64,000 bases of DNA, from the NCBI GenBank assembly GCA_049614265.1, contig JBMZDK010000001.1, forward strand, positions 1,400 through 65,399. The letters run 5' to 3'. Below are positions 40,920-49,030 of this stretch, in pieces (within the stretch, counting starts at the first letter, position 1; each line of letters begins with the position of its first letter). The notes below the pieces were generated by a model that ran no database searches, was not told where the DNA came from, and was given only the letters and a program-made list of their open reading frames with translations. The translations under genes were made by a program, and so were the position numbers. Source of the DNA: Thiolinea sp. (GTDB lineage: Bacteria > Pseudomonadota > Gammaproteobacteria > Thiotrichales > Thiotrichaceae).

Positions 40920-43829
40920 TCAGGCTTTAATCTTTTGTTGTGCTTTTAACCACTTGCTGAGTTTGGCTGATAATTCATCAATACGTACAGGCTTGGATAA
41001 ATAATCATTCATACCCACCATGTAGCACTTTTCATCATCACCCTTCATCGTATGCGCAGTTAAAGCCAGAATAGGCAGCTTCTGAAACTGATCTTCTTCC
41101 AACTTGCGAATTTTACGTGTTGCCTCATAACCATCCATAACCGGCATCTGACAATCCATCAAAATCAGATCATAATCAACGGCCTGAACAGCAGTTAAGG
41201 CCTGCTCACCATTAGCAGCATGATCAACGTTTAGATAACCCAGCTTTTTCAGCATCGCCAGCGCCACCTTCTGATTCACCAGATTATCCTCAACTAATAA
41301 CAAACGGGCTGCCAATAGTTCGTTTTTTATCTCTTTTTCAGGCTGAGATAATTTTGCCGGATTGGACGATGCTGCTTCATCTTCCTCTTCATTGACATTA
41401 GCCTTGCCTTCTTTCCAGCTCTGGAGATCACTCTCAGATTCCCGGACAGGTTTATCGGAAACATGCCCCAGGCGCTGTAAGTAGCTTAGAATGATCGAGT
41501 GTTTGATCGGCTTGGGCAAAATATGAATGCGCCGCCCCAAATCAATACCGCCCAGTGCCTCCAGTTGCTTATTATTGCCATAAATAATAATGGCTTCCTG
41601 TGTAATCTCTCTGATGGCAGCAATAACTGAAAGCATTCCCAATGGGTGTCTCGGTTTGTGGTAAACCATGTCGGCATCCAGGGCGATAACAGAAAAGCTA
41701 TTGTTTTCCTCCAATGCTGCCAACAGATTATTCAGGGTATTTGTGACTACCGGAAGCAAGTGCCAATCCAACAGCTGTTTTTCATAATAATTATTAAGCG
41801 TTAAATTATTTCCCAACAATAACACAGAGATATTATCAGCCAGCTCGGGGGCCATTTTTTCACTGCCAGCAGGTTCAACCATAATGGTTGCCCAGAAAGT
41901 AGACCCCTTACCATGCTTGCTGCGCAGCCCAATCTCGCCTCCCATCAGGTGAGTAAGGCGTTTACAAATGGTTAAACCCAAGCCGGTGCCGCCATGCTGA
42001 CGGGTACTCGAACCATCAACCTGAGTAAAGGCTTTAAACAGCGTTTCCTGCGCGTCTAAAGGTATACCTGACCCACTGTCATGTACCTCAAAACACAGCT
42101 TGGATTTTGTATTATCCTCATCCTGCTCCGGTGCCGAAATGACTAAAATGACGTAACCACGATCAGTAAATTTAATTGCATTGTTTATAAGGTTAATCAG
42201 AATCTGGCGAATACGAATAGGGTCAGCAATCAGCCGTTGTGGAACGTCAGGATCCACAAAGTAAGCTAACTCAACGTTTTTGCAATATGCCTGTTCGCCA
42301 AGCAAATCCATCACGCCTTCAATAAGCGGCATCAGATCAAAGCTGGAATTATTGATTGTCAGTTTGCCTGCCTCAATCTTTGAGACATCCAGAATATCGT
42401 TAATAATGCGTAACAGGGACTCTGCACTTTGCAGAACCGTTTGTGTCAGTTCACGCTGGGAACGATTCAGGCCACTGTCCAGCAATAAAGTGCTCATACC
42501 AATGACACCATTCATTGGAGTACGAATTTCATGACTCATATTAGCCAGGAATTCCGATTTCATCCGTGTCGATTGCAGCGCTTTCTCATGAGCCTGCTCA
42601 AGCTCACTCGCAGCCTGCAATTGTTGGGTGATATCCCGGACAACACCGGTGAAGATAACCGTGTCTTCTACTCTGGCCTCATTGACTGACAGCTCAATCT
42701 GAAACAGAGTGCCATCCTTACGCCGGGCTTCCATTTGGCGCATCTTCCCGACATAACCATACCCCCCGGTATTCAAATAATTTTGCAGGTAGCTGTCATG
42801 ATGAGTCGCGACATTTTCTGCCATTAACAAGCTAATATTACGGCCGATTAACTCCTCAGGCGTGTAACCAAACAGATCAAGCACGGCAGGATTGGTTTCA
42901 ATAATTGTGCCCTGATTGTTGATGACGATAATGGCATCCAGAATTGAATCAACAATGGCTTTGGTTTTGATTTGACTGGCATGTAAATCACGGGACAGTC
43001 TTTCTCTCTCATCAATCCCGGACAGTAATTTTTGGTTCGCTATTTTGGCCTCTTTCTCAGCCACTTTGGCATTTACCAGAGACACACGCATGCTGCGCAA
43101 TGCCAACATCAGAACAATGAGCAATGTCGCACCCATAATCGTCAGCATCAAAAATGACTGCAGCATCAATTCACGTGTTTCAAATGCCAGAGAACCCAGT
43201 GGCTGCGTAATTGATAAAACCCCGCGAACATCCCCTTCCTTCCAGTCCGTTTTAGGTGTTCCGGGATAGCTGTTATGACAGGAGACACAACTGGCTGACA
43301 GACGATCGGCACGCGCATAACGCAAGACACTACTGCCATCCTGATCTTCAATTCGCCAGACCGGCTGCTTTGGGTTTGCCCGTAACTGTTCTATCGCCCA
43401 GCGTTCAAAATCATCTTTCGCTCCGCCCTCATTTTTCGCTACCCGCCATGGAAAGGGGTGATTACTGTATAAGCGCACGCCAACACTGGAGTTCTCCGCC
43501 GCCAGAAATTTGCCAAAGTCCATCGACAAGGTAGCAGGCAGCGGTAATTTTCCGGAGTTCTGATAGTCATGACTAAACTCGATACCGTGTGTTTTTGCCG
43601 GGCCAACAACTTTTTGAGAGTAAAAGGTTCTGAATTTAGCCACTGAATCAGCAAAATTACTGGCTTCATTAACCAGTGTACGTTCCTGAATCGACTGGCT
43701 TTGCTGTTGATTAAACCAAAAAACAAATGCAGTCCCCACTACAATGAGAGTGGACAAAATATAAGCTACATAACGACTCAGGAAACCGCCTTCCCGCACA
43801 CTCAGAAACTTATCAATGTTATTATTCAT
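40920..43829 (-). CDS. Hybrid sensor histidine kinase: periplasmic DUF3365-like (CxxCH), PAS, HisKA, HATPase, two receiver domains
   Basis: TM-periplasmic-TM layout; CVSCH; FLANMSHEIRTPMNG; NLINNAIKF, DSGSG, GGTGLGL; LLVEDN, LILMDCQMP, YLSKP. The start is uncertain (43829, 43853 or 43877). Confidence 0.93.
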   Translation of the reverse strand: MNNNIDKFLSVREGGFLSRYVAYILSTLIVVGTAFVFWFNQQQSQSIQERTLVNEASNFADSVAKFRTFYSQKVVGPAKTHGIEFSHDYQNSGKLPLPATLSMDFGKFLAAENSSVGVRLYSNHPFPWRVAKNEGGAKDDFERWAIEQLRANPKQPVWRIEDQDGSSVLRYARADRLSASCVSCHNSYPGTPKTDWKEGDVRGVLSITQPLGSLAFETRELMLQSFLMLTIMGATLLIVLMLALRSMRVSLVNAKVAEKEAKIANQKLLSGIDERERLSRDLHASQIKTKAIVDSILDAIIVINNQGTIIETNPAVLDLFGYTPEELIGRNISLLMAENVATHHDSYLQNYLNTGGYGYVGKMRQMEARRKDGTLFQIELSVNEARVEDTVIFTGVVRDITQQLQAASELEQAHEKALQSTRMKSEFLANMSHEIRTPMNGVIGMSTLLLDSGLNRSQRELTQTVLQSAESLLRIINDILDVSKIEAGKLTINNSSFDLMPLIEGVMDLLGEQAYCKNVELAYFVDPDVPQRLIADPIRIRQILINLINNAIKFTDRGYVILVISAPEQDEDNTKSKLCFEVHDSGSGIPLDAQETLFKAFTQVDGSSTRQHGGTGLGLTICKRLTHLMGGEIGLRSKHGKGSTFWATIMVEPAGSEKMAPELADNISVLLLGNNLTLNNYYEKQLLDWHLLPVVTNTLNNLLAALEENNSFSVIALDADMVYHKPRHPLGMLSVIAAIREITQEAIIIYGNNKQLEALGGIDLGRRIHILPKPIKHSIILSYLQRLGHVSDKPVRESESDLQSWKEGKANVNEEEDEAASSNPAKLSQPEKEIKNELLAARLLLVEDNLVNQKVALAMLKKLGYLNVDHAANGEQALTAVQAVDYDLILMDCQMPVMDGYEATRKIRKLEEDQFQKLPILALTAHTMKGDDEKCYMVGMNDYLSKPVRIDELSAKLSKWLKAQQKIKA

Positions 43830-44088
43830 ATTCTTTTCTGTTTTTTGACGCATAACCGCGAACGAAAACGCACGCAAAGGCCAGTTTTTCCACTACACCG
43901 ACAAAGCTACACCCCGAACCTTAACTTTACGATGAATGGCATCCTCCCAGACAACGATTCAGAAGGTGAAGACACGGGAAAACACCCGGGAGCATCATAA
44001 CGCCATCACACTGAATGCAGAGAAATTTCAGACCAATTGTATGGCTACCCCACCAACCATTACATCTTATCCAACCGGCAAACCCTCA

Positions 44089-44532
44089 TTAGCCAGCTGT
44101 ATTTTTTTCAACCCAACGCGTCTCACCGCCCGCCAACGTTTCACATTTCCAGAACGGCGCATTATGTTTAAGCGCTTCCATAATCGAACGACAGGCCTCA
44201 AAGCTGGCATTACGATGTGCTGACCATACCGCGACCAGAACGATCGGATCACCCGGCAAGATATCCCCTACCCGGTGCAAAAGCAGGACATGATCCAACC
44301 CCCATTGCGTTACAGCAGAATCAACAATTATCGACAGCTGTTTTTCGGTCATCGCCGGGTAATGTTCCAGTCGCATTGCCTGGACATCATCACCTTCATT
44401 AAAATCACGCATCGTGCCAATAAAATTCGCGTTTGCGCCACACTGACTGGCAATAAAAGCGTCCTGAGCCTGAAAATTTACCAGTTCAACCCAGGGATCC
44501 AAACTATTCTCATGAACCGCAATGCGAATCAT
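44089..44532 (-). CDS. moaE: Molybdopterin synthase catalytic subunit
   Basis: FIGTMRD, LEHYPAMTEK, LHRVG, SAHRNASF, LKHNAPFWK. Confidence 0.95.
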   Translation of the reverse strand: MIRIAVHENSLDPWVELVNFQAQDAFIASQCGANANFIGTMRDFNEGDDVQAMRLEHYPAMTEKQLSIIVDSAVTQWGLDHVLLLHRVGDILPGDPIVLVAVWSAHRNASFEACRSIMEALKHNAPFWKCETLAGGETRWVEKNTAG

Positions 44533-44533
44533 C

Positions 44534-44764
44534 TCACCCTCCGGTCACCGGTGGGAAAAAAGCGACTTCATCCCCGTCTGCTACCATAGTATCAGCATGG
44601 CAATATTCCTGATTGCAGGCAACCAGCGTACTTTCTGCTAAACCATCATCACCAACGATTTGTTGCCAGAGGCCACCTGTTGTCATTCCATCTTTCCAAT
44701 CAAGCTCTACCCGGCTTTGCCCGGTTTGCTCACGCAGGCTGGCAAAAAACAGTACCGTTACCAT
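44534..44764 (-). CDS. moaD: Molybdopterin synthase sulfur carrier
   Basis: VLFFASLRE, ACNQEY, DEVAFFPPVTGG (C-terminal GG). Start refined to ATG 44764. Confidence 0.95.
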   Translation of the reverse strand: MVTVLFFASLREQTGQSRVELDWKDGMTTGGLWQQIVGDDGLAESTLVACNQEYCHADTMVADGDEVAFFPPVTGG

Positions 44765-44780: not shown

Positions 44781-47270
44781 TCAGATGTGCCCAAAGGGCT
44801 GAACAGTTACCAGATCACCCTTGCTCACACCGGCATTCGTTTCAGGCAGCACTATAAAGCAGTTTGCACGACTCATTGACGTCAGAATGCCCGATCCCTG
44901 GTGCCCGGCTTTTTCCACCGTTAACCTACCCTGATCATCATGATGCAAAATCGCCCGCAATAATTCAGTGCGCCCCGGCTTTTTGCGTAAATTATTCTGG
45001 CATGCCGCTTGTACAAGCAGTGGCTCATAATCCCGCTCACCAGCCAGCTTAATCAGCGCCGGTTTGACAAACAGGTGAAAGGTCACCATGACTGCAACCG
45101 GATTGCCCGGCAAACCAAAAAACAATGCATCACCAAGACGACCAAATGTTAGCGGCCGCCCCGGCTTAATTGCAATTTTCCAGAAATTCATTTCCCCAAG
45201 CCGGCTCAGAATCCCCTTGATATAATCCGCTTCCCCCACTGAGACGCCACCGGATGTAATAACCACATCCGCATTTGCGGATGCCTCACGAAACGCGGCT
45301 TCCAGTAATTCAGGTTCGTCAGGAACCACTCCCATATCAATGATATCCATCCCCAAATCACTGAGCAGGCTGTACAGAGTGTAACGGTTGCTATCATAAA
45401 TACACCCCGTTTCAAGCGGCTCGCCAATCGAGCGTAATTCATCCCCGGTTGAGAAAAATGCAACCCTGGGACGCCGATACACTTCGGTTTCAGCAATCCC
45501 CAGTGAAGCCAGCAATCCCATGTCTGCTGCCGTAATACGGCGCCCACGGATTAATACAGTTTGTCCGGCTGCAATATCCTCTCCGGCATGACGCACATTT
45601 TGACCGGCCTTATGACCACATCCCAGTCTAACCCGCTCACCTGACAGAGCTTCGCTCTGCTCCTGCATCACAACCGTGTCCGTACCTTCCGGCATTATTG
45701 CACCGGTCATGATTCGCACACACTGCCCTGTTTCACATAGCTCATTAAAAGGCTTGCCTGCAAACGCAGTACCAACAACCGGGTAATCACGCACTGTATC
45801 GACTGGCAAGCCGGAACCCGCCAGAGCATAGCCATCCATTGCAGAATTAGTATGTGCCGGAACATTTAACGGGGAAATAATATCTCCGGCTAACACCTGA
45901 CCCAGGGTATCTCTCAGCGGACGTTTAATATAGGAAGTTAATGGTTTAACAGCTGCCATTAAATTCTGCCTGGCCTCCTGTAACGAAAGGCTGTCCGGAT
46001 CGCTGGCATCTGCACAGCTGGGGGCGGAGCGAATCGTATTGCCAGCGGTATTATTTTCAGATTGTTGAGGCATCCCGGCAAAATACCCGGCAGCATTCTG
46101 GTCTGATGATTTGGTCAGCTTTAGTGCCGGAGGTAATGGTAAATTCCCGTTAACAACCCGCGCCATAATGAATTGCACAATATCTTCCGGGGCATTCAGA
46201 TCCAGCTGCAAAATGTTTCGTGTTGTCTCCGCAACCTCTGGAGGCGTATCACAGATCAGGGCAATAATGTGTTTGTCTTCGGGAAACAATAAAGGTTTAT
46301 TGAGCACAGGGCGGTGAACTTCCAGCTTAGGGAAGGCCTCATGCTTAAACCCCTCAACCAGAATCAGATCTGCACAATCCGGATTCACCAACTTCATGGC
46401 ATCCTGCAGCGAAGGTTCTGTCTGCCCGGAACATTCCTGCATAATTGCCATACGGGTGCTGGCAGCAAGAATTACCTGATCCGCTCCGGCCTCACGAAAC
46501 TTAAAACTGTCTTTTCCGGGCTGATCCAGCTCTATTTTATGGTGGCCATGCTTAATCACCGTAAGATTCAGCCCTTCTGCTTTCAGCAATGGGATCAACT
46601 GGGTTAGCAGGGTTGTTTTTCCAGTACCGCTATAAGCACAGATACCTACAATAGGCGTTGCCTTCATCGCATCTTCAAGTGCCAATTTTTGCTCAGGAGT
46701 ATTCATATTACGAAACATTGTCGGCACATCGGAAAAGTCCACAGTCGCCATTTTATGTTGTGCATACCAACGATCAATTTTACGTTCACCACTGGCAAGA
46801 AAAGTATTCAGGCTCTCCAGCAGAGCAACCGGAATCAATGCATGCACCGGTTGCAGGCGTTCACCATCATGCGCCACGGCTAACTCCGCACCTTCATTTC
46901 GCACGGCGTCCAGCATACGCTGCGCCATATCAGGCGCAACCTCCGGCCCATCACAGGGCAATGTCATAATCCAGGGAGTATCAACATGCTGCAGTGCAGT
47001 GGCAAAACCAGCCAGCGGCCCCTGAAAATCACTGAGTTGGTCGCTGACAACGTCCACACCGTAACGCTGATAAACCTCCTGGTTACGATTCGCATTAATC
47101 AGTACCTGGTTCAACTGTGGCTTCAGTGCGGTCAGCAAATAATCCACCAGTGGTTTGCCATTCAGTTCAACCAGTCCTTTATCCTGCCCACCGAGGCGTC
47201 TGCCCATGCCCCCCGCCAGAATAACACCGGTAATTAACTGTTGTGCCTGGGTTTTCGCTGAATCGCTCAT
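44781..47270 (-). CDS. mobA-mobB-moeA: Triple fusion MobA (MGD guanylyltransferase) - MobB (adaptor GTPase) - MoeA (molybdopterin molybdotransferase)
   Basis: One open frame: ILAGGMGRRLGGQDKG (MobA), AYSGTGKTT / IKHGHH / LVEGFK (MobB), SAMDGYAL / STGDEL / TSGGVSVG / GLPGNP (MoeA). Probable start ATG 47270. Confidence 0.93.
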   Translation of the reverse strand: MSDSAKTQAQQLITGVILAGGMGRRLGGQDKGLVELNGKPLVDYLLTALKPQLNQVLINANRNQEVYQRYGVDVVSDQLSDFQGPLAGFATALQHVDTPWIMTLPCDGPEVAPDMAQRMLDAVRNEGAELAVAHDGERLQPVHALIPVALLESLNTFLASGERKIDRWYAQHKMATVDFSDVPTMFRNMNTPEQKLALEDAMKATPIVGICAYSGTGKTTLLTQLIPLLKAEGLNLTVIKHGHHKIELDQPGKDSFKFREAGADQVILAASTRMAIMQECSGQTEPSLQDAMKLVNPDCADLILVEGFKHEAFPKLEVHRPVLNKPLLFPEDKHIIALICDTPPEVAETTRNILQLDLNAPEDIVQFIMARVVNGNLPLPPALKLTKSSDQNAAGYFAGMPQQSENNTAGNTIRSAPSCADASDPDSLSLQEARQNLMAAVKPLTSYIKRPLRDTLGQVLAGDIISPLNVPAHTNSAMDGYALAGSGLPVDTVRDYPVVGTAFAGKPFNELCETGQCVRIMTGAIMPEGTDTVVMQEQSEALSGERVRLGCGHKAGQNVRHAGEDIAAGQTVLIRGRRITAADMGLLASLGIAETEVYRRPRVAFFSTGDELRSIGEPLETGCIYDSNRYTLYSLLSDLGMDIIDMGVVPDEPELLEAAFREASANADVVITSGGVSVGEADYIKGILSRLGEMNFWKIAIKPGRPLTFGRLGDALFFGLPGNPVAVMVTFHLFVKPALIKLAGERDYEPLLVQAACQNNLRKKPGRTELLRAILHHDDQGRLTVEKAGHQGSGILTSMSRANCFIVLPETNAGVSKGDLVTVQPFGHI

Positions 47271-47349: not shown

Positions 47350-48009
47350 TCATGTTGCTGCGGTCGCAACTTTCTGTTGCTCAAGGTGAAGATGACGCTC
47401 AGCCATGCCCTTGAAAAGCACCGGGTCATGGCTAGTCACCATTAGCGCAACACCTTCAGCACATAACTGACGCATCAACTCCAGCGTTTTATCACGTGCC
47501 TGACTATCCATGCTCGCAGTTGGTTCATCCAATAACAAAGCCTGCGGCCGTCGTAGCCTGGCCCGCGCAATCGCAACCCGCTGGCACTCACCACCTGACA
47601 GGCTTTTAGCATTGGAATCAATAATATCACCCAACCCCGCCCAGGCACTAATGGCCTGAATTTGTTGCTGTCGTTCTGTTTTGTTCAACTGACGTGGCAA
47701 AGCATAATCAAGATTATGCCAGACTGTGCCACTAAACATATAGGGTTGCTGATGCAGATACATGACTCTTTTTTGCAAAAGATTTCGGCCTGCCCGCCAG
47801 TTATATTCATCATTGCCAAATGCCACCAGGCATGTATCCGGCTTCTCCAGGCCGGCCAGAATACGCATCAGCGTTGTTTTCCCGCTGCCATTTTTTCCGG
47901 TCAGCAAAATACATTCGCCCGCCGTCAGCGTCAGGTCAACATTCTTCAGCACCGTGCGTTTGCCAAAACATTTGCTCAGCTGGCTATAAACCAAACGGGA
48001 TACTGTCAC
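47350..48009 (-). CDS. tupC: Tungstate-type ABC transporter ATP-binding subunit
   Basis: GKNGSGKTT, LSGGECQR, LLDEPT, TSHD. GTGA overlap with tupB. Confidence 0.8.
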   Translation of the reverse strand: MTVSRLVYSQLSKCFGKRTVLKNVDLTLTAGECILLTGKNGSGKTTLMRILAGLEKPDTCLVAFGNDEYNWRAGRNLLQKRVMYLHQQPYMFSGTVWHNLDYALPRQLNKTERQQQIQAISAWAGLGDIIDSNAKSLSGGECQRVAIARARLRRPQALLLDEPTASMDSQARDKTLELMRQLCAEGVALMVTSHDPVLFKGMAERHLHLEQQKVATAAT

Positions 48010-48707: not shown

Positions 48708-48943
48708 CTTGTGTCAATCACAGGCTCAGATTAAAGTCAGTGGCGAATCCTACCAGTAATAACGGCACATGCAAAAAGTATCAGGAATTTTACCACGGGT
48801 TTGCCTGCAACATGATAAGGCTGTGTAAACCGGAAACTTGTGGTACTGCTTGTATCCGGAATAAACGGCATAAATCATGCTGAAAAAGCCTACAAAATTT
48901 ATCCCGGATACAAAAAGTGCCTAATCATTTCTACCCCATGAGT

Positions 48944-48970
48944 GATATAATATGGCCCCCGAGATATAAT
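48944..48970 (+). promoter_or_regulatory. Tandem GATATAAT (two consensus -10 boxes) upstream of icd
   Basis: TATAAT at 48946-48951 and 48965-48970, 60-85 bp before ATG 49031. Confidence 0.5.
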
Positions 48971-49030
48971 CCGCTGTATTTCCCGCAGTGATTTTTCGGA
49001 ACGGTTTCTCAATTTCTAACAGGTAGTCTT

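Follow-up and report, generated by a model that had tools for sequence, protein, structure and literature searches.

A MobA-MobB-MoeA triple fusion with an Arg/Ala insertase pocket and its probable place in the tungsten and molybdenum cofactor economy of Thiolinea

A 64,000-nucleotide stretch of DNA from Thiolinea sp. (contig JBMZDK010000001.1 of assembly GCA_049614265.1, positions 1,400 to 65,399; hereafter the window) encodes as one polypeptide three proteins of molybdenum and tungsten cofactor maturation: the guanylyltransferase MobA, the GTP-binding adaptor MobB and the metal insertase MoeA. Our analysis confirms that this triple fusion is a genuine single-chain frame. From its insertase pocket, its gene neighbourhood and the contents of the genome, we consider it reasonably probable that the protein is a general finishing enzyme for bis-molybdopterin guanine dinucleotide (bis-MGD), with an insertase module biased towards tungsten, and that it serves among others a formate dehydrogenase (FDH) of the MeFDH1 type.

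The fusion gene is read on the minus strand from 47270 to 44781 as an open frame of 829 codons without an internal stop; coordinates of its modules and neighbours are collected in Table 1. Pfam profiles place NTP_transf_3/MobA at residues 15-172 (E 1e-39), MobB (PF03205) at residues 207-341 (E 1e-45, with the whole 133-position profile covered), and all three MoeA domains behind them, MoeA_N at 428-591, MoCF_biosynth at 606-739 and MoeA_C at 755-826. Each module also scores above the cut-off of its own family model: 230.7 bits against 151.85 for MobA (NCBIfam TIGR02665), 137.1 against 76.2 for MobB (TIGR00176) and 572.3 against 440 for MoeA (PRK10680). Intact motifs are found in MobA (LAGG 18-21, PCDGP 105-109, NMNTPE 188-193), in MobB (Walker A GTGKTT 215-220, LVEGFK 304-309) and in MoeA (SAMDGYA 476-482, STGDEL 607-612, GGVSVGEAD 674-682). 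A first-pass annotation of this DNA had described a single 829-residue MobA-MobB-MoeA frame with intact motifs, followed by moaD and moaE, and the frame, the Pfam and NCBIfam scores and the motifs all agree with that description. It had also stated that pairwise fusions exist, as they do: the NCBIfam models PRK14489 and PRK14491 describe MobA-MobB and MobB-MoeA fusions, and Geobacter GSU3147/Gmet_0300 is a MobA-MobB fusion (PMC2700814). Compared with the bifunctional MobB/MoeA proteins, the window protein matches the whole PRK14491 model (718.1 bits against a cut-off of 532, residues 203-827 covering positions 9-595 of 598) and has an extra N-terminal module, the 200-residue MobA. Like the MobA-MobB fusions represented by PRK14489 and the Geobacter proteins, it has MobA followed by MobB across a short junction; unlike them, it scores below the cut-offs of those models (295.5 bits against 541 for NF011057, 197.8 against 379 for NF011056), and its chain runs on into MoeA.

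A single frame of this kind could be an artefact of assembly or sequencing, in which a one-nucleotide insertion or deletion joined mobA with mobB::moeA; the genome is a fragmented draft of 494 contigs, and its nearest genus-mates mostly have a separate mobA. We judge this very improbable, because an independently assembled contig, public homologue clusters and other genomes of the family all keep the frame. The independent contig, 58.9 kb long, encodes a protein (P0002) identical at 822 of 829 positions, gapless and in the same frame and length, and four of the seven substitutions lie in the linker. In public data, proteins of 750-845 amino acids with the full set of five domains (41-72% identical) make up twenty-odd clusters at 90% identity, some of them encoded on multi-megabase contigs. 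Dozens of homologues at 60-72% identity likewise read through in a single frame. We also surveyed 107 genomes of the order, which span eight genera of a single family (Thiotrichaceae): about 21 of them, Thiothrix isolates included, carry an unbroken triple frame of about 800-870 amino acids. Several Thiothrix species in culture and a genus-mate (G068, with an 822-residue frame) share the fusion, their junctions being just as short. The AlphaFold2 model of the fusion (121 homologues) points the same way, since the MobA-to-MobB junction is predicted as an unbroken helix (residues 192-202) leading into a strand (207-211), with a predicted local distance difference test score (pLDDT) of about 85.

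Across the model the mean pLDDT is 88.8 and three confident modules are resolved; confidence is low at residues 1-4, in the MobB loop 272-282 and at 388-414 in the linker (pLDDT 30-50). The linker is enriched in Ala, Ser, Asn and Pro. Translation of the fusion itself most plausibly begins at the ATG at 47270, homologues starting near residue 10 of the 829-residue form; a longer form of 882 amino acids from the in-frame ATG at 47429 was rejected, as that codon lies inside the upstream ABC ATPase gene. The end of the linker carries a motif of its own, Ser-Cys-x-Asp..Asp-Pro (residues 418-427, window 45990-46019), directly before MoeA_N, in which S418, C419 and D421 are each conserved in at least 90% of the 121 homologues. 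A related ISCDE sequence is present at residues 15-20 or so of the genome's standalone MoeA, and the motif does not occur in E. coli MoeA. Standing beside the insertase, its Cys could touch the metal or the pterin.

The insertase module can be compared with one that has been studied by experiment. In M. extorquens a moeA1-mobB-tupBCA cluster constitutes a tungsten-specific branch (PMC13197769, 2026): MoeA1 and MobB are needed for the tungsten-dependent FDH MeFDH1 and not for molybdenum FDHs, MoeA1 interacts with MobA and with MobB, and MoeA1 residues Arg291 and Ala312 (Lys and Ser in molybdenum insertases; Ala312 corresponds to E. coli Ser303) bias insertion to tungstate. Together MoeA1, MobB, MobA and FdhD reconstitute maturation of tungsten-bis-MGD in E. 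coli (PMC13714276, 2026). In an alignment with E. coli MoeA (1FC5/1G8L) the fused module has IKPGR/GNPVA, which puts Arg705 and Ala726 at E. coli positions 282 and 303 (K282->R, S303->A). It thus departs from the canonical Lys282/Ser303 pocket of the molybdenum insertases of E. coli and Cnx1E and has the pair of the tungsten-biased MoeA1, Arg at the 291 position and Ala at 312; this comparison was made by the residues named in PMC13197769. A search for a second moeA, which the first-pass annotation had recommended, uncovered one on another contig, C25 (P0122): a standalone protein of 426 amino acids, 50% identical, with unrelated neighbours and with Lys/Ser as in E. coli. The two paralogues fall into different major clades of the MoeA tree, the standalone one in company with E. 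coli MoeA. In our sample of 267 MoeA domains the Arg/Ala pair occurs in 125 of the 152 that are fused to MobA and/or MobB.

Linkage to a Tup-type transporter, the second character of the M. extorquens branch, is likewise present: tupB and tupC lie directly upstream of the gene into which mobB is fused. From species-representative genomes we took the 80 loci most similar to this one and located in each the counterparts of the seven proteins of the window. In 48 of the 80, tupB-tupC stands just upstream of moeA and is read from the same strand; in 42 of those 48 mobA/mobB stands between tupC and moeA, giving the order tupB-tupC-mobA-mobB-moeA, mostly as separate genes. The tup-linked loci span Candidatus Thiodiazotropha, Sedimenticola, Chromatiaceae, Thiothrix and Thiolinea; Arg is found at the pocket position in all 48, and Ala as well in 45. 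An orthologue of TupA is present in 46 loci, mostly directly upstream of tupB, and these are 47-74% identical to a TupA-like protein encoded elsewhere in our genome (contig C21, 23994-24845), which has a TTTS motif and for which TupA is the only match at E<=1e-20. That gene is divergent from genes for a sigma-54-type response regulator (444 amino acids) and a 704-residue histidine kinase, so that a tupA detached beside a two-component system may represent either a sensing arrangement or a plain operon break.

The rest of the inventory helps to place the fusion in the metabolism of the cell. In this 97.6%-complete genome MobA and MobB are each present once by tblastn and profile search, and only in the fusion; moaD and moaE are likewise single-copy (the only tblastn match in each case). 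A complete modABC lies on contig C256, separate from the fusion operon. The alpha subunit of an FDH (C56, 85-2859) scores 1336.8 bits against the tungsten-containing MeFDH1 (7VW6_A/7E5Z_A) and 617-620 against the molybdenum enzyme FdsA (6TG9/9WXB); it has the motif HCTRLCHASS with a Cys active site, and the gene upstream encodes a 590-residue NuoE/F-fusion beta subunit. By these sequence tests the enzyme is an NAD-FDH of the MeFDH1 type, which would carry tungsten, and it is the presumed client. FdhD is also encoded, beside moaA. Two genes belong to the aldehyde:ferredoxin oxidoreductase (AOR) family (C79, 999-2870, and C23, 14379-14972). AOR-family enzymes are typically tungsten enzymes with a bis-molybdopterin (MPT) cofactor that lacks guanosine monophosphate (GMP), and they would need a tungstate-inserting MoeA and not MobA; here they sit in an aerobic-looking Thiotrichaceae genome. 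A BisC-like reductase, several further bis-MGD enzymes and NuoG are encoded, together with two or three proteins of the XO (xanthine oxidase) family; no sulfite-oxidase-family protein was found in the genome. As far as genes can tell, these contents fit a two-metal economy. The FDH genes may have a history of their own: with a genus-mate (G075, which has a 604-residue MobB-MoeA) the alpha subunit shares 96% identity but the MoeA domain only 74%, and the FDHs of other genus-mates are 59-80% identical, a pattern that suggests a recent lateral spread of these genes inside the genus.

In the working that we propose, tungstate would be imported by TupBC together with the TupA-like binding protein of contig C21. 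The MoeA module would put the metal into adenylylated MPT, its oxyanion pocket of Arg705 and Ala726 probably preferring tungstate; the tethered MobB module would hold or organise the metal-MPT intermediate, and the MobA module would add GMP to yield bis-MGD. FdhD would pass the cofactor to the MeFDH1-type NAD-linked FDH, and other bis-MGD enzymes would also be supplied. By fusion the modules would be set at 1:1:1 and near one another, and the substrate channelling from metal insertion to bis-MGD formation that the first-pass annotation had put forward might follow from this arrangement. Because MobA, MobB and MoaDE are single-copy, the fusion must also handle molybdenum-MPT from the second MoeA, the standalone Lys/Ser-type enzyme, which would presumably be fed by ModABC. 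For the same reason, the operon holding the sole MobA, MobB, MoaD and MoaE and the insertase alone being duplicated, we regard it as a general late-stage cofactor operon and not a tungsten-only one. The earlier hint of a tungsten-dedicated branch, taken from the neighbouring tupBC, therefore stands in part: the R705/A726 pocket, the tupABC synteny in relatives and the MeFDH1-type FDH all speak for tungsten, whereas 'dedicated' is too strong for an operon with the only copies of these four genes in a genome that also encodes BisC-like, other bis-MGD and XO-family enzymes.

Several observations weigh against a tungsten bias of the fused insertase or against the part given to the FDH. In M. extorquens the role of the Arg/Ala pocket rests on docking and partial in-vivo mutagenesis. 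The same pair is found in 39 of the 112 standalone MoeAs of our sample, which rules it out as a signature of fusions only, and within the tree the pocket is largely a clade character that may reflect ancestry and not metal choice. The transporter components fall short of their equivalog models, with 246 bits against a cut-off of 400 for the C21 protein (TupA, NF041772) and 195.3 against 320 for the permease (TupB, NF041773), and tupA is not in the fusion operon of this genome. An MeFDH1-type FDH is present in 11 of the roughly 21 genomes of the family that carry the triple fusion, a Thiothrix-like genus (g8) being mostly without it; a strict pairing of the fusion with this FDH is rejected by that count, and because of it the FDH is not the sole reason for the fusion. 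Finally, the predicted template modelling score of 0.55 leaves the placement of module against module undefined, so that no inter-domain contacts were read from the structural model.

These points give room to a different division of labour, by cofactor branch and not by metal. The fused MoeA would serve bis-MGD for the dimethyl sulfoxide (DMSO)-reductase family with either metal, the standalone MoeA would supply molybdenum-MPT for the MobA-independent XO-family and molybdopterin cytosine dinucleotide (MCD) enzymes and perhaps for AORs, and the tup linkage would mean only a transporter family that carries both oxyanions. Branch specialisation is a credible rival to metal specialisation: it accounts for an insertase joined to the genome's only guanylyltransferase, for the presence of two or three XO-family proteins beside several bis-MGD enzymes of unassigned metal, for the lack of a tungsten-type FDH in half of the triple-fusion genomes and for the Arg/Ala pocket in 35% of the sampled standalone MoeAs. 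Yet the synteny is of the TupABC and not the ModABC type, consistently across many genera, and this genome has a separate modABC; the pocket residues are exactly those that shift tungsten and molybdenum usage in M. extorquens (PMC13197769); and the AORs, which need tungsten-MPT without GMP, would have to rely on the Lys/Ser MoeA. On balance we hold the division by branch to be rather unlikely and prefer the reading of a general finishing enzyme for bis-MGD whose insertase is biased towards tungsten. A bolder form of the latter can be offered tentatively, with doubt outweighing belief. In it the protein would be a natural single-chain synthase of tungsten-bis-MGD, its tungstate-selecting R705/A726 MoeA tethered through MobB to MobA, such that the air- and mismetalation-sensitive tungsten-MPT never leaves the complex. 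A heterologous host given this one gene, FdhD and a Tup transporter could then mature CO2-reducing FDHs of the MeFDH1 type, and a start at Met202 could also give a MobB-MoeA product that tunes the ratio of insertase to guanylyltransferase.

How the fusion came about can be read from its relatives. In many other gammaproteobacteria tupA-tupB-tupC-mobA-mobB-moeA are neighbouring but separate genes, and the fusion is therefore best seen as a lineage-specific collapse of the operon. It would have arisen in the Thiotrichaceae by the merging of three adjacent, translationally coupled genes of that series, which moaD-moaE follow here. In split relatives the mobA stop lies a few codons before the mobB ATG, or overlaps it, in another frame; in the window no mobA stop remains, and Met202 (MKATPIVGICAYSGTGKTT) is, to judge from these junctions, the relic start of an ancestral separate mobB. 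Loss of the mobA stop would have joined the frame to the mobB start and left a very short connector, at a stage when mobB and moeA were presumably already linked by the flexible linker; mobB and moeA are fused in some of the surveyed loci (L019, L026, L027 and L034). In the tree of MoeA domains the window protein belongs to a clade of 61, all of them fusions, with support of 0.98.

Parsimony requires seven or more changes of the triple state within this clade and 11 or more over the whole MoeA tree. The fusion may be nearly neutral because it has been gained or lost so often among close relatives, and it is possible, if on the doubtful side, that it has no kinetic or fidelity role at all: it would then be a near-neutral by-product of small insertions and deletions at overlapping stop and start codons in a packed operon, with fixed 1:1:1 expression as the most that it offers. 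Junction 1 lies exactly where the mobA stop of relatives meets the mobB start. Most genomes of the genus have mobA plus mobB::moeA, which is the commonest state there, with the triple form in two genomes only, and the linker varies among triple fusions from about 14 to 55 residues (median 28), the window's being the longest. On the other side, MoeA, MobA and MobB of E. coli and M. extorquens interact physically (bacterial two-hybrid assays, PMC13197769), so that tethering them plausibly affects hand-over, and MobA-MobB, MobB-MoeA and MobA-MoeA fusions recur across phyla, a classic sign of functional coupling. That the fused state has come and gone so often suggests that there is no strong selective advantage to it, a point that also bears against a large benefit from the working proposed above; whether the fusion gives channelling or a fixed stoichiometry only, its selective effect appears to be weak.

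The triple architecture is, on present surveys, uncommon globally, frequent locally and evolutionarily labile. Among public proteins clustered at 50% identity it is found in about two to four clusters only. In the locus survey, triple frames occur in Thiothrix lacustris DSM 21227, T. fructosivorans ATCC 49748 and T. caldifontis DSM 21228, in a Thiolinea metagenome-assembled genome (MAG) and in a gammaproteobacterial MAG (L017), and many genomes of the family have a MobA-MobB protein of about 380 residues plus a separate MoeA. NCBI names proteins of 775-838 residues with this architecture 'bifunctional ... MobB/MoeA', 'molybdopterin molybdotransferase' or 'molybdenum cofactor guanylyltransferase'. 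Public naming is incomplete, as no name covers all three modules and the MobB/MoeA label omits MobA. The first-pass annotation knew of no characterised triple fusion, and we found no paper characterising one in the literature searched; the possibility it had raised that the architecture is common and already characterised thus holds in its first half, given the roughly 21 family genomes, the named Thiothrix isolates and the public annotation, and fails in its second. Fusions of MobA with MoeA without MobB form a large set of proteins of 600-700 residues, whose named sources are mostly Betaproteobacteria/Burkholderiales and some of which NCBI labels 'gephyrin-like molybdotransferase Glp' or MobA alone; in two proteins the order is reversed, MoeA-MobB. 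The MobA-MoeA fusions resemble the window protein in coupling the insertase to the guanylyltransferase and in having the Arg/Ala pocket (55 of 64), and differ from it in the lack of MobB and in falling into a different clade of the MoeA tree.

Around the fusion gene the operon is compact. The permease and ATPase genes overlap by 4 nt, 79 nt separate the ATPase gene from the fusion and 16 nt the fusion from moaD, and the ATG of moaE follows one base after the moaD stop. The start of moaD is probably the ATG at 44764 (MVTVLFFASLRE, ribosome-binding site GAAAGGA), 16 nt past the fusion stop; the TTG at 44794, which overlaps the fusion gene, was passed over in its favour. The permease scores 202.8 bits (cut-off 100) against the ABC_perm1 model NF038017 and only 100.8 against ModB (TIGR02141). 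In the region upstream of the operon, a search of Rfam found no molybdenum or tungsten cofactor riboswitch (the sole match is a spurious long non-coding RNA, E 0.14), and a scan for promoters and terminators gave counts no higher than those in shuffled controls, sigma-70-like matches included. Directly downstream of moaE, at 40920-43877 on the minus strand, lies a gene for a 985-residue hybrid sensor kinase with a Tll0287-like periplasmic domain, PAS, HisKA and HATPase domains and a receiver.

Table 1. Features of the fusion gene and its operon, in window coordinates
Feature	Position	Strand	Remarks
Intergenic region, 323 bp, presumed promoter region	48708..49030	.	between operon and divergent monomeric isocitrate dehydrogenase gene
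ABC permease, TupB-like, 233 aa	48006..48707	-	best named match TupB
ABC transporter ATPase, TupC-like, 219 aa, without TOBE domain	47350..48009	-	Pfam ABC_tran E 6e-31
MobA-MobB-MoeA fusion gene, whole	44781..47270	-	829 codons + stop
MobA module, residues 1-200	46671..47270	-	molybdenum/tungsten-MPT guanylyltransferase; TIGR02665 and motifs
MobB module, residues 202-372	46155..46667	-	P-loop GTP-binding adaptor; PF03205, TIGR00176
Met202 codon	46667-46665	-	first residue of MobB module
Linker, 55 residues, 373-427, flexible	45990..46154	-	ends in conserved SCADASDPDS; low pLDDT
MoeA module, residues 428-829	44784..45989	-	metal insertase; PRK10680
Arg705 codon	45158-45156	-	pocket residue of MoeA module
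Ala726 codon	45095-45093	-	pocket residue of MoeA module
moaD, MPT synthase small subunit, ends in GG	44534..44764	-	TIGR01682 74.6 bits against 66.15
moaE, MPT synthase large subunit	44089..44532	-	PF02391 E 5e-33

Set beside the tungsten branch of M. extorquens AM1, the Thiolinea system, as predicted from sequence, has the same parts: MobA, MobB, a transporter of the Tup type and a MoeA whose pocket is Arg/Ala. Both probably serve the same client, the Thiolinea FDH alpha subunit reaching 1337 bits against MeFDH1 and a NuoE/F-fusion beta subunit and FdhD occurring in both, and both follow the logic of two paralogues, a second MoeA of Lys/Ser type and modABC being available for molybdenum. In contrast to M. 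extorquens, the three maturation proteins form one polypeptide in Thiolinea, moaDE lie in the operon as well, tupA stands apart from it, and MobA and MobB, being single-copy, would be shared between the metal branches. The separate MoeA, MobA and MobB of E. coli (MoeA 1G8L/1FC5) have the same folds and catalytic motifs, the MoeA module scoring 388 bits against E. coli MoeA (1G8L; 1FC5 over residues 9-405); the differences lie in the exchanges Lys282->Arg and Ser303->Ala, in the covalent linkage and in the N-terminal SCxDxxDP extension of the MoeA module.

For specialists the fusion is unsurprising, because MobA, MobB and MoeA are known to interact and to fuse pairwise, and the protein is a further example of a publicly annotated, mis-named architecture without experimental characterisation; the finding exposes a systematic under-annotation of triple fusions. 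Its interest lies in what such proteins may do. Tungsten FDHs need the MoeA1-MobB-MobA module, the supply of which is a bottleneck for CO2-reducing enzymes in E. coli (PMC13197769, PMC13714276), and the fusions of the Thiotrichaceae would be a natural one-gene version of this module that limits heterologous production of tungsten FDHs. The family brings its own comparators: sister genomes show the genes separate, fused in pairs or fused all three, and the same cell also encodes a Lys/Ser paralogue. With these, the Thiolinea system makes it possible to address MobB as a scaffold for the hand-over from insertase to guanylyltransferase, and the Arg/Ala pocket as a setter of metal choice.

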